From a virus (lineage: Duplodnaviria > Heunggongvirae > Uroviricota > Caudoviricetes), in the IMG/VR virus record IMGVR_UViG_3300029641_000003: a DNA stretch of 64,000 bases; one strand, given 5' to 3'. The translations under genes and the position numbers were made by a program. Below, one piece after another: positions 8,221 to 19,000 of this stretch. The notes beneath the pieces were generated by a model. The model was given only the letters and a program-made list of their open reading frames with translations, did no database searches and was not told the DNA's origin. Within the stretch, counting starts at the first letter, position 1. The number at the start of each line of letters is the position of its first letter.

Positions 8221-9327
8221 TCACTCAATGATTTTTTCTGCTGTCAGCCAGCTAATTTCTTGCCTGTCTTTCGGCGGTTTTAGCATGTGGGCGTATTCAG
8301 CGACATTCTCCCACGGAATTGTTTTTGCCCACTCAACGATAGCATTGTGATCTGCAGTGAAGAGTGGAATGGTGTGCGATTTCAACCACTCTAATGTTGT
8401 AACGCCATGTTTTTTGGCGTGGTGCTGTGCATGATGCCGGGCTATCACTAGTAATGGCATTGTCCATTCACTACCATCATGCATCGTAAAGCGCATTGTT
8501 TTCGGCATATCTGATTCAAGAACAGCCTCCCGAATACCCGGGAACTCACCAAGAACCATGCGACGGTAATCATCGCCGCTTTTACCACCATACATTTCTG
8601 CGATCCCATCAAGATAATCTTGAGTAAGCAGAGGTGATTCTTCTGCGTTCAGCTTGATGGCAGTATAAATACCACATGGATTTTCTTCAGTTTTTGCACG
8701 ACCATGATGGGAATCGTAAAAGTGTCCATGTTCCTCCTCTGGAGGAGCAGACGTCAAAAGTATACGTGAGTCGCCACTAACTAAAGATGCTCTTAACATC
8801 CCGAATAGCCGATAGCTTACCAGAGCCGCGTCCATAACAATGATCAAAAGATGTTCAGCATAATATCCGGCTACATCTTCCTCATAATTTAGGCGATATG
8901 GTTTAATTTCGCAGCCCCAAGATTTTTGGTAACGATGATTGAGGCCATTTTGGTCGATTTGAAAATACTCTCCCAGTAATGGCGCTTTTGTATTAGCTTT
9001 CTCCCAATACATATTCATGAGTGAGAGAGTTACCATTCCATTACGCTCAAAGTCTGGAGCGACCATGACCGTTTTAGACTCAGGCATCAGGATCGTATAA
9101 AGGATACAAATGATAGCCATAGCAGACTTATGCCCTATCCCAGTCGGTGTGGTAACGCTGACTGCTGAACCTTTTTGTTGAATCGCCTCAACAATTAATT
9201 TTTGCTGGTGGGTTAACTTAACCCCCATCAACTCTTCTGCTGCTAATGCCCAGTCATGGCTATATTTGCTTACCAGCTCTCTCCACTCTGGTAATTCGGT
9301 GATGTTTTTAGGCGTCAGCATCAGCAT
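8221..9327 (-). CDS. PacB-paralogous terminase-like ATPase
   Basis: 368 aa; long stretch alignable by eye to PacB at 14676..16184 (YAEHLLIIVMD / HAEHLLLILDE; HGHFYDSHHGRAKTEENP / SGYFYESHHSRAKAEGNP; MVLGEFP / KVLGQFP). Confidence 0.7.
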   Translation of the reverse strand: MLMLTPKNITELPEWRELVSKYSHDWALAAEELMGVKLTHQQKLIVEAIQQKGSAVSVTTPTGIGHKSAMAIICILYTILMPESKTVMVAPDFERNGMVTLSLMNMYWEKANTKAPLLGEYFQIDQNGLNHRYQKSWGCEIKPYRLNYEEDVAGYYAEHLLIIVMDAALVSYRLFGMLRASLVSGDSRILLTSAPPEEEHGHFYDSHHGRAKTEENPCGIYTAIKLNAEESPLLTQDYLDGIAEMYGGKSGDDYRRMVLGEFPGIREAVLESDMPKTMRFTMHDGSEWTMPLLVIARHHAQHHAKKHGVTTLEWLKSHTIPLFTADHNAIVEWAKTIPWENVAEYAHMLKPPKDRQEISWLTAEKIIE

Positions 9328-10114
9328 CCTCCGCTACCTCTGCTTCCACATCTGCCGCGACTTCATCGGACTGTTCTTCTTTGGCCTGTTCTGCAATCGC
9401 CGCACGGCATTTCGCCCTGGCTGTAGCGATAGCCTCAACTTTCACGTCATTAGGAATACTTGAGGTGACATACATATCCAGTTCTTCAGCACGGAATACT
9501 GTTTTGCCCAGGAATTCATCAAGCATCCAGGTTAAGGAAAAGTCGCAGGAAATCAGGTCTACTTCGCCTTCCGCGCCGTTTGGGAAATGGATAAATATCT
9601 GTTTGCCCAGGCCAAGCACGCGACAAGCAGCCATCATTACTGCAAGTTCCAGGTCTTTGTTTTCACCTGCTACTGGTTGATCCACACCAGTAATAGTGCC
9701 GTTCAAATGGATATTATATGGCTGATATTTAGAGATACGTTCTACACGCCATGTGCCGGTTAAGGTTCCCTGGCGGAAGATTATTGGCGTGACCGAAAGC
9801 GACAGCTCTCGAATGAGTTGTTGCGCTATGGCTGGGTCATACAGCGGATCTAACGCGATGCATCCATAAGACTGCGCCAGTTCAAACAATTCTTCCTGTG
9901 TGCACTGAATGCCTCTTGCCGTAATAAAACGTCTGACTCCCGTTTTCCCATCACGCCAGATAGCAATGCCATTCTCACTATCTAACTCTTCGTCTAAGCC
10001 CAGGTATGTAAGGATGGTTCGCTCAATGGTGGCAAAGGGCAGGGACATATCATCGTTTACATCCACCAGCAGGCCATTACGCAGGCGATATTGAATGTTT
10101 TTGGTATTTTCCAC
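9308..10114 (-). CDS. hypothetical protein with strongly acidic C-terminal tail
   Basis: 268 aa; C-terminus EEQSDEVAADVEAEVAEDADADA; overlapping operon partner. Confidence 0.6.
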   Translation of the reverse strand: MENTKNIQYRLRNGLLVDVNDDMSLPFATIERTILTYLGLDEELDSENGIAIWRDGKTGVRRFITARGIQCTQEELFELAQSYGCIALDPLYDPAIAQQLIRELSLSVTPIIFRQGTLTGTWRVERISKYQPYNIHLNGTITGVDQPVAGENKDLELAVMMAACRVLGLGKQIFIHFPNGAEGEVDLISCDFSLTWMLDEFLGKTVFRAEELDMYVTSSIPNDVKVEAIATARAKCRAAIAEQAKEEQSDEVAADVEAEVAEDADADA

Positions 10115-10120
10115 GTTAAA

Positions 10121-10783
10121 TCACTCCACAACAAACCAGTCACAGGCCAGCAGGTCGCCAACTGAAGGCACCCACGGAACAACTACACCTTGTGCATTTT
10201 TTAAGGCGAAATAAGCACCATACGGAACGAGGTCGCCGGGGAAATATCCCTTAATGGCTTCCATTCGTGCCGGGTACTGTCCTTCAGGAACCAGCCAGCA
10301 GAATTGGTTTTCGCCGTTCCACCCACGTCGGGCAACTTTCTTGCCATCCTTCAGCCACATCAGCGCGTCAGAAAAGTCGGCTGCTTCAAGGTCGATTTCT
10401 TCTTGTAGAGTAACGATACCGCCAGCAGAAATAGTTACGTCCCTGGCTGTAATGAATGTCACCCCATTGTGACCTTCAATGCTGAGCGATACCCCATTTT
10501 CGGAGGCGTCGTTAACCCGGCTATAGCATTTTTCAAATGCTTTCTCTGGCACATAGACCAGATAGCCATTTTCAGCAGTGACGAGATATCCTCCTATTTG
10601 CGGTCGGAATTTTTCCAAGAACACACCATCAACACGAAGCGTCATTCCTTTTGGCTCAACGACTTCGATACTGCCAAAAATGGGCGCATAAGCTTCGCCG
10701 ACAATAACAATATCTTTGATTTTCGATGCCCGAATGATGCTGTGGCATTTGTATTTGGGGAACACCTGAAAAGTGCTGACCAT
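10121..10783 (-). CDS. two-domain protein with C-terminal DUF2829/Tad2-like domain
   Basis: 220 aa; C-terminal ~80 aa LKDGKKVARRGWNG ... VVPWVPSVGDLLACDWFVVE fits recalled DUF2829 signature. Confidence 0.6.
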   Translation of the reverse strand: MVSTFQVFPKYKCHSIIRASKIKDIVIVGEAYAPIFGSIEVVEPKGMTLRVDGVFLEKFRPQIGGYLVTAENGYLVYVPEKAFEKCYSRVNDASENGVSLSIEGHNGVTFITARDVTISAGGIVTLQEEIDLEAADFSDALMWLKDGKKVARRGWNGENQFCWLVPEGQYPARMEAIKGYFPGDLVPYGAYFALKNAQGVVVPWVPSVGDLLACDWFVVE

Positions 10784-10797
10784 AATCCTTCCTCTAC

Positions 10798-17548: not shown

Positions 17549-17937
17549 AGGGAAGCCTCACGTTTTTTCACAGCGGCGTTCCATAGCTGGTTAGTCATCG
17601 CCACCAACTGACGCTGCTCCTTTCGTAATTGAGCTTCTATCTTTCGGTTGGTGTTTTTCACCAACAGCCGACCGAATTCAGGAGTGCGCCCGCGCACCTT
17701 GAACTGGTATCCATTCAGGCCATGTAACCAATATTTCCGGGGGTATACGCGGTCGTCTATTTCGCAAATGGCACGACTGGAACGAACAAAAAAACGTATG
17801 ATGTTATTTACGTTTACGCGCGACACATGAAGGTGAGGATATTGTGCTTTTGCACGGCTGGTGATTTCGGTGACCGTCAGATAGCAGTCAGCCCTGATCA
17901 TGATATCCGCTATTTCGGCGCTACTGATTTGCTCCAT
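17545..17937 (-). CDS. lpa: Lpa-like late promoter activator
   Basis: 130-aa ORF directly upstream of pacA; palindromic operator pair just upstream. Confidence 0.7.
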   Translation of the reverse strand: MEQISSAEIADIMIRADCYLTVTEITSRAKAQYPHLHVSRVNVNNIIRFFVRSSRAICEIDDRVYPRKYWLHGLNGYQFKVRGRTPEFGRLLVKNTNRKIEAQLRKEQRQLVAMTNQLWNAAVKKREASL

Positions 17938-18014
17938 TTATCCCCCGGATAGAAAAAGACCGAGGGGATGATAATCAGCTTGTTAATACTGAGAAGACTG
18001 TCAAAAACATGATG

Positions 18015-18044
18015 TATTAGAAAATTAATATTAATTTACTAACA
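18015..18044. promoter_or_regulatory. palindromic operator pair upstream of lpa
   Basis: TATTAGAAAATTAA-TA-TTAATTTACTAACA, two inverted copies of the motif. Confidence 0.6.
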
Positions 18045-18428
18045 CTACCAGCGGGATAAACGAACAACATGCTTAACTTTTGCCTCCCACTTCCCTTTAT
18101 GTTTGTTGATCACCGCCTGGGCCATCTTCAGACTGGCTTCAAAATCGGCTTTTCGACCACTATTACCCACCAGCAACGCTCCGTCTATTTCAGGTAAGCA
18201 TAAGTAATCCTGCTCGACGGTAAGCGGCATTGATGATGTAACCTGGCAGGCTTTCCATCTGAAGCGTATGCGCACACTCCTGACTGACATCACGACATAA
18301 CCTGATATTGTGCTCTTGTGTCCGGCGTCTGTGCGTGTAGCCTTGCATGATGTTATCTTGCAGGTGATAATGTCCCAACCAATGTGCATCGCATCCTCAA
18401 TGCGTAATTTAGTAGCCTCGTACATCAA
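18045..18428 (-). CDS. hypothetical protein
   Basis: 127-aa ORF; start overlaps stop of upstream gene. Confidence 0.4.
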   Translation of the reverse strand: MMYEATKLRIEDAMHIGWDIITCKITSCKATRTDAGHKSTISGYVVMSVRSVRIRFRWKACQVTSSMPLTVEQDYLCLPEIDGALLVGNSGRKADFEASLKMAQAVINKHKGKWEAKVKHVVRLSRW

Positions 18429-19000
18429 AAAACCTCCCAGTCAGTAGCGATAATATCAACACCAGTTGCAAACCAGTCTGTCTGTGCCTGTAAATCCCCA
18501 TTCATCATTACCAGGCGAGGCATAACCATCACATCACAACCTTCAACAATATCGAATGCCTCTTCCGGCAGGAATTCGACGAGCTTTTCTTTGCTGCCAA
18601 CACTGCCACGGAGCATCGATATATAGCTCCCTTTAGGCCATGATGTTCGCCGGGCATCAAGCCCCTTCATCATCCAGTAAAAGGCCGATGAGAACGGGAT
18701 GTTCTTTTTGGCGATGAGCACGTTATTCGCTTCTGTGTACTTCAGGAACTTAATTAACCTTACCATTGACTCGGATAACGCAATGTACGGCTCATGATTG
18801 ATTGCTGACACGCTTACGCCGTGCAGTCCAACACTTACCACAGTCATATCACCGTTCTGTGCGGTTTCGATGTTGACGCCTTTACGAACTAACGCTGCAT
18901 AAAGCTCCTCGCGCTTTTGCGTCCAGCATTCTCGTCGCCCTATAAAGTCACTCAAAACGAGATCATCTTCTGAATACGCGTTATCGTTCGCCGTTAACAT
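18425..19000 (-). CDS. two-domain protein with C-terminal DUF2829/Tad2-like domain
   Basis: 191 aa; C-terminal ARRTSWPKGSYI ... TDWFATGVDIIATDWEVF resembles the 10121..10783 C-terminus. Confidence 0.55.
   Translation of the reverse strand: MLTANDNAYSEDDLVLSDFIGRRECWTQKREELYAALVRKGVNIETAQNGDMTVVSVGLHGVSVSAINHEPYIALSESMVRLIKFLKYTEANNVLIAKKNIPFSSAFYWMMKGLDARRTSWPKGSYISMLRGSVGSKEKLVEFLPEEAFDIVEGCDVMVMPRLVMMNGDLQAQTDWFATGVDIIATDWEVF

Follow-up and report, generated by a model that had tools for sequence, protein, structure and literature searches.

The 64,000-nt stretch of viral DNA analysed here (the window; IMG/VR record IMGVR_UViG_3300029641_000003, Caudoviricetes) carries, at positions 8221-19000 and in the adjoining DNA, the recombinase, repressor and packaging genes of a P1-like phage-plasmid, in an order that differs from that of phage P1. 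Genes were identified from a listing of open reading frames (ORFs) and by tblastn of all window ORFs against the complete D6 and P1 genomes, while nucleotide matches were obtained by blastn. The left flank of the locus is read on the + strand and comprises an ORF with a pmgU-like stretch (5141-5956; tblastn match to P1 85408-85545), hot, coding for a DNA polymerase III theta homolog (6396-6647; 90% amino acid identity to P1 Hot), humD, coding for a UmuD'-like protein (7122-7511; 98% to P1 HumD), the antitoxin gene phd (7578-7805; 99% to P1 Phd; PF02604, PhdYeFM) and the toxin gene doc (7805-8185; 90% to P1 Doc; PF02661, Fic/Doc). The phd-doc pair lies just to the left of position 8221, where the initial annotation of this region began. 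The adjoining “cargo operon” of that annotation consists of six co-directional ORFs on the − strand (8221-12118), which are close-set or overlapping: a gene for a PacB-like paralog of 368 amino acids (8221-9327), an isaA-like gene (9308-10114; product 71% identical to that of D6 orf113 and 47% to P1 IsaA), a gene for a DUF2829/Tad2-like domain protein (10121-10783; PF11195, E 1.6e-22; 79% to D6 orf114), the dUTPase gene dut (10798-11292; PF00692; 89% to D6 Dut) and, directly downstream of dre, two small ORFs of 162 and 114 amino acids (11289-12118; 71% and 82% to D6 orf116 and orf117; phrog_6669 and phrog_1968, respectively).

The gene dre (12191-13219, − strand; PF00589) encodes a Cre-type tyrosine recombinase that is 94% identical to D6 Dre and 41% identical to Cre, and that keeps the catalytic residues R175, H290, R293, W316 and Y325. 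Next to it, at 13372-13403 on the + strand, a single rox site matches the 32-bp wild-type sequence given in PMC4777119 with 0 mismatches, where none would be expected by chance, and shows the 14-bp inverted repeats and the 4-bp spacer. A D6-type c1 repressor gene follows on the + strand (13538-14638; 81% to D6 C1) and, on the − strand, the genes of the terminase large subunit, pacB (14676-16184; 92% to D6 and 56% to P1; phrog_2), and small subunit, pacA (16184-17548; 74% to D6 and 21% to P1; phrog_1711), the late promoter activator gene lpa (17545-17937; BPP1_LPA, PF25716, E 3.7e-50; 82% to D6 and 34% to P1) and two ORFs upstream of lpa (18045-19000; 67% and 92% to D6 orf5 and orf6), the second of which is Tad2-like (PF11195, E 5.2e-10). 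The order phd-doc, cargo operon, cre, lox, c1-position gene, pacB, pacA, lpa, as initially read from the sequence, was recovered in full from the ORFs and the tblastn matches. The labels cre and lox hold in so far as a Cre homolog and a recombination site are present, but the two are Dre and rox; loxP was not found in the window within 3 mismatches.

With high confidence, the source of the window can be regarded as a D6-like (Dre/rox type) member of the P1 supercluster of phage-plasmids, displaying the normal gene order of its lineage. Over its entire length the window is colinear with D6, at 72-97% nucleotide identity and without inversion: D6 82415 to 91159, continued from D6 position 1 to 53107, corresponds to window 1001-64000 in one orientation, and the only blocks inverted between the two are the known tail-fibre repeats. 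Megablast of the region gave matches of about 80% identity to the complete D6 genome and to the D6 immC deposit (AY753669). The D6 annotation lists phd, doc and pdcA on one strand and an isaA-like gene, a DUF2829 gene, dut, orf116, orf117 and dre on the opposite strand, followed past dre by rox, c1 and then pacB, pacA, lpa, orf5 and orf6. Phage D6 (NC_050154/MF356679; immC AY753669) and the pYU39_89-like plasmid prophages are the closest known systems, and the likeness to D6 comprises Dre, the exact rox, C1, PacB, PacA and Lpa, at the identities given above, as well as the operon of accessory genes that follows dre (orf117, orf116, dut, DUF2829, isaA-like) and the convergent phd-doc. The window differs from D6 in its nucleotide sequence across 13507-19670, where identity is only about 80%, in the PacB-like gene at 8221-9327, which stands where D6 has pdcA, in the length of the DUF2829 protein (220 amino acids versus 146 in D6) and in the tciA/tciB interval (D6 6281-6905), to which about 240 bp correspond in the window (19670-19912). 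Judging from the circular relatives of about 90 kb in PLSDB and from the intact virion genes, we infer that the element would be maintained as a circular plasmid prophage and would form infectious myovirus particles.

The same arrangement is widespread. When window 6000-14700 was used as a query, 1474 PLSDB records matched, most of them over phd-doc alone, and at least 32 complete plasmids carried at least 80% of the query in one piece, at 84-98% identity; the plasmids among the matches listed measure about 87-96 kb (one 216 kb) and are nearly all from E. coli. Dre is encoded at 80% identity or more by 192 plasmids. Four were inspected individually, namely CP104667, CP056699 (E. marmotae), CP085065 (Dre 100%) and pK91 of Salmonella Typhi (Dre 88%), and in all of them dre is followed by accessory genes and then by convergent doc and phd; all inspected relatives share one orientation of the segment. 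As the order is found in the two independently determined D6 sequences (AY753669; MF356679/NC_050154), in at least 32 plasmids and in pK91, it is fixed in the D6 cluster, and the rearrangement is not particular to the element under study. Neither is the arrangement new, having been deposited for D6 in 2004 and 2018 and in many Escherichia and Salmonella plasmids; the D6 immC deposit (AY753669) annotates Dre and rox, while the complete D6 genome uses P1-based gene names. Passages of PMC6799933 refer to a detailed comparison of P1 and D6 published by Gilcrease and Casjens (2018) and show a whole-genome comparison of pYU39_89, D6 and P1.

In P1 (NC_005856), hot, lxr, humD, phd, doc, pdcA, pdcB, lpa, pacA and pacB lie on one strand; c1, coi and imcBA come next, on the opposite strand, and after them loxP, cra, cre, c8, ref and mat. 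This agrees with the P1 order given in the initial annotation, in which lpa-pacA-pacB were placed between doc and c1 and loxP-cre past c1. The P1 order doc-pdcA-pdcB-lpa-pacA-pacB-c1-lox-cre was not present in the window by tblastn or blastn. Instead, the recombinase-site-c1-pacB-pacA-lpa of the window equals the lpa-pacA-pacB-c1-loxP-cre of P1 read on the opposite strand, with matching gene orientations; c1 and the recombinase gene are transcribed divergently from the site in the window as in P1.

The alignments proposed as a check on colinearity with P1 were run with tblastn and blastn, and they bear out that the region is not colinear and that it lies partly in inverted orientation with respect to phd-doc. 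The P1 orientation is kept by the left flank (5141-8185: the pmgU-like ORF, hot, humD, phd and doc) and by the right flank (24722-32041, − strand: ulx and darB, with tblastn matches to P1 10435-10025 and 17245-11465). In between, at 8221-24272, all P1 homologs are inverted: isaA (P1 21746-22528), cre, pacB, pacA, lpa, a tRNA cluster at 19455-20639 on the − strand (Met-CAT, Ser-TGA, Thr and Asn, from ARAGORN and Rfam) together with adjoining P1 68.7-71.2 kb DNA (blastn to P1 71198-68736), and the pmgS-like to pmgM-like genes at 21985-24272 on the − strand (tblastn to P1 82470-83696 and 78961-79368), which are the last inverted homologs. The segment that differs from P1 in orientation thus extends over about 16 kb, from about 8.2 to 24.4 kb, with which the − strand position of the tRNA genes agrees. 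This extent does not fit the block of cre, lox and cargo genes that had been proposed as the moved unit, given that the inverted stretch runs to about 24.4 kb and includes the pac genes, lpa, the tRNAs, pmgS and pmgM.

Further to the right, icd-ant, repL and pro-prt are also inverted relative to P1, while ddrB through gene 23 (39086-64000) are colinear with P1 26.2-57.8 kb, and dmt-hrdC, mat and ref are among the further blocks that the rest of the D6 annotation shows in inverted orientation. P1 and D6-type genomes are therefore related by several inversions and translocations at the level of modules, of which the doc junction is one visible product. What the window shares with P1 is the unit lpa-pacA-pacB-c1-site-recombinase and a nearly identical phd-doc module. 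It differs in the orientation of the unit, which is inverted with respect to phd-doc and the virion genes, in having Dre/rox for Cre/loxP and a C1 of just 21% identity, in lacking pdcB, cra and coi/imc as well as c8-ref-mat beside the recombinase gene, and in the inversion or relocation of other blocks (tRNAs, pmgM-pmgS, icd-ant, repL, prt-pro).

The distance between the packaging genes and the recombination site is a further point of comparison. The densest GATC cluster of the window is found at 17095-17235, in the 5' third of pacA, with 5 GATC in 160 bp, arranged as two inverted GGGATCA pairs and one extra GATC. In P1, the equivalent part of pacA contains the pac site, whose TGATCA/G hexamers are Dam-methylated, and the cluster of the window is located about 3.75 kb from rox, compared to 4.0 kb between pac and loxP in P1; window 17095-17235 is put forward here as a candidate D6-type pac site. 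Sternberg's work on P1 and the 2004 account by Lobocka et al. reportedly place lox in the terminal redundancy of the first headful, allowing cyclization mediated by Cre.

A third lineage of Cre-type phage-plasmids is represented by pE1_003 of Leclercia adecarboxylata (NZ_CP042508), whose recombinase is 51% identical. This plasmid keeps lpa, pacA-pacB, a c1-like gene, the site region and a cre-like gene, followed by o114-, dut- and isaA-like genes, and it also has a PacB-like paralog. It differs in that pacB is split by Tn5403, in a ParM gene between lpa and pacA, and in toxin-antitoxin modules of other families (PemK upstream of lpa and HigB past the cre operon), without phd-doc.

In the explanation that we favour, the unit lpa-pacA-pacB-c1-rox-dre, which combines the terminase and its internal pac with the late activator, the master repressor, the site for cyclization and dimer resolution and the recombinase, has been kept whole, while several old inversions and translocations of whole modules separate P1 from the D6-type elements. 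The outcome is a unit that points opposite to the hot-humD-phd-doc module and to the backbone of virion genes, inside a segment of about 16 kb whose borders fall in accessory-gene hotspots, away from rox. The events may have been illegitimate or module-exchange recombination in the ancestry of both clusters, and a need for pac to stay about 4 kb from lox or rox, with the site in the terminal redundancy of the first headful, could have led to selection against breakpoints inside the unit.

Three points weigh against this account. The adjacency of doc and the dre operon may partly reflect a recent exchange of modules, and not an ancient inversion alone. In the outgroup pE1_003 the unit is flanked on either side by toxin-antitoxin modules, so that this plasmid provides no polarity for the P1 versus the D6 orientation. 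Finally, that this inversion is explicitly described in print is something we infer from the deposited annotations and from a secondary citation. A weaker and rather improbable reading would have the D6-type orientation as ancestral and P1, the textbook reference, as the rearranged genome. Rooting through distant Cre-type loci was attempted and abandoned, as a scan of genome contigs yielded just two P1-type loci and pE1_003 was flanked on both sides.

The alternative that survives best is that the doc junction results mainly from the relocation, or the recent lateral acquisition, of hot-humD-phd-doc from a P1-type element at a hotspot. Window 7069-8175 (humD-phd-doc) corresponds to P1 87530-88637 at 93% nucleotide identity and the equivalent stretch of D6 (86470-87294, including pdcA) is 98% identical to P1, whereas most of the other stretches matching P1 show about 64-74% identity and a few short ones 83-88%. 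This difference indicates that humD-phd-doc is a mosaic module that was recently exchanged between the P1 and D6 clusters. In the window, similarity to both P1 and D6 DNA stops at 8175, at the end of doc, which is the left border of the inverted segment; in D6, similarity to P1 stops at the end of pdcA. The content past doc is also variable in close relatives: pdcA in D6, a PacB-like gene in the window, CP104667 and CP056699, and nothing in CP085065, where the counterpart of window 8264-9302 is absent and the first and last codons of the PacB-like gene are left, which suggests that the gene was lost by deletion. Such variability is typical of an accessory-gene hotspot. On the other side of phd-doc, a full type I restriction-modification system (hsdM, hsdS and hsdR; 17756-23836) directly precedes phd in NZ_CP085065, in the place that humD and hot take in the window, which is a further sign of a hotspot. 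The similarity values, the ends of the matches and the variability on both sides of phd-doc all speak for acquisition at this place. However, the pmgU-like ORF and hot, further to the left, also keep P1 order and orientation, which places the module within a longer syntenic block; its position is constant across the D6 cluster, including pK91 with its 88% identical Dre, and many other blocks differ in orientation between D6 and P1. As the main cause of the junction, acquisition of hot-humD-phd-doc is for these reasons considered somewhat unlikely, although it is compatible with, and partly complementary to, the inversion of whole modules.

Far less probable is the mechanism that was originally suggested, in which Dre or Cre acting at rox or lox would have inverted or transposed a cre-lox-cargo block in this element. 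The presence of a functional-looking recombinase and of an exact site, in a region that is inverted relative to P1, is what could be expected under such a mechanism. For a tyrosine recombinase to invert a segment, a pair of sites in inverted orientation is required, and one site remains at each junction. The window contains a single rox, as does the complete D6 genome, and rox sits between divergent dre and c1 as loxP sits between cre and c1 in P1. Having kept the neighbours of loxP, rox is internal to the conserved unit and does not mark a breakpoint. A search of the window for half-sites found no rox-like or lox-like half-site at the borders of the segment (8186-8220 and 24273-24721); the only other match to a 14-bp rox arm within two mismatches in the window is at 45671, the complete D6 genome has one further, unrelated two-mismatch arm at 20519, and a lox-like 13-mer at 19056 is at chance level. 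A search for inverted repeats across 6-26 kb likewise revealed no long inverted repeat bracketing the segment. Unlike the C-segment with its Cin/cix system, the segment thus has no pair of inverted sites at its borders, and it was seen in a single orientation in every relative inspected. Inversion mediated by rox was rejected, since the searches for full rox sites, half-sites, loxP and its arm, and inverted repeats gave nothing at the borders; with a single rox inside the unit, P1-like neighbours and borders free of half-sites, recombination at lox or rox is not supported as the origin of the order. An artefact of assembly, or a recent rearrangement private to this element, is hardly conceivable as the source of the order, considering its occurrence in two independent D6 sequences and in dozens of complete plasmids whose hosts and countries of origin differ.

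The c1 gene differs considerably from its P1 counterpart. Its product is a distant homolog of P1 C1 (21% identity, E 2e-7) and matches NCBIfam phage_rep_C1 with E 2.8e-5, which is below the cut-off. A motif scan identified ATATGTTAGAAAAT, within two mismatches, at seven positions of the window (13570, 18012, 21950, 21972, 23217, 34172 and 35369), compared to 0.48 expected, with an extended consensus of about TRTGTTAGAAAAYTAA. These sites precede c1, lpa, pmgS and repL or fall in the interval between repL and icd/c4, positions equivalent to those of C1 operators in P1, and D6 has equivalent sites, so that ATATGTTAGAAAAT is a candidate for, and probably is, the operator of D6-type C1. The position of the site at 13570 favours a shorter c1 gene, upstream of which this operator-like site would then be located; the gene probably starts at 13601, in agreement with the 1038-nt genes annotated in RefSeq relatives. 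On the other side of the intergenic region, a sigma-70 promoter-like site was observed at 13363-13390 on the − strand (TTGGCA, 16-nt spacer, TATAAT; 11 of 12 consensus positions), directed towards dre and with its -35 hexamer inside rox. This overlap suggests autoregulation, in which Dre, when occupying rox, might repress the transcription of its own gene.

The PacB-like protein encoded next to doc aligns to PacB residues 8-264, which form the terminase ATPase domain, at 34-37% identity. The Walker motifs are degenerate in this family, with no conservation of the Walker A lysine (GTGKS in PacB) or of the Walker B Asp-Glu, and a conserved, family-specific C-terminal segment of about 100 amino acids stands in place of the nuclease half. 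Neither this protein nor the isaA-like protein had a match in Pfam, NCBIfam or PADLOC, and the RefSeq relatives of the PacB-like protein are labelled hypothetical proteins. An AlphaFold2 model built on 9 sequences reached a mean pLDDT of 55, with the C-terminal domain below 50, a quality too low for the model to be used. Full-length homologs, 48% identical, are present in three P1-type phages, directly after the isaA-like gene and between ssb and hxr, the locus that in reference P1 is occupied by isaA-IS1-isaB. The isaA-like and PacB-like pair behaves as a two-gene cassette, found at 4184-6065 in MH422554, at 4190-6041 in vB_EcoM-813R1 and, between the dre operon and doc, at 8221-10114 in the window. 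The idea, prompted by P1-type phages that lack IS1, that the PacB-like gene is an uninterrupted P1 isaB was rejected, as tblastn gave no similarity to P1 isaB, and phrog_5902 was discarded as a marker of the family, since true PacB matches it even better. It is conceivable, if improbable, that the two genes form a mobile cassette of P1-family phage-plasmids and that the PacB-like protein, as a pseudo-terminase that keeps the ATPase fold, acts as a terminase decoy or regulator. In that case its target might, for example, be PacA or the portal of a P1/D6-type phage that shares or superinfects the cell, and the packaging of that phage would be blocked or modulated.

Some further features of the surroundings were recorded. 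Proteins with PF11195 (formerly DUF2829; Thoeris anti-defence 2-like) are encoded on the − strand on either side of the dre-rox-c1-pac-lpa unit, at 10121-10783 and 18425-19000, and relatives of the second are labelled “MW1434 family type I TA system toxin” in RefSeq. Two paralogous ORFs of 116 amino acids, both phrog_2594, lie in opposite orientation at 6013-6363 (−) and 6672-7022 (+), with hot between them. In the RefSeq record of D6 (6084-7850), three tRNA genes are annotated on the + strand and tRNA-Met(CAT) is left out, whereas ARAGORN placed all four on the − strand. Rfam identified the C4 antisense RNA and the a1/b1 target element of the immI region at 33871-33956 and 34025-34077 on the − strand, inverted relative to P1 like the adjacent icd-ant and repL.

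For the annotation of this family, these results imply that the gene order of P1 is not a universal template for P1-like phage-plasmids. The junctions that flank the unit are hotspots, in which toxin-antitoxin, Tad2-like and restriction-modification genes and the PacB-like paralog are found, and it is the conserved unit lpa-pacA-pacB-c1-site-recombinase that should be searched for in such genomes.

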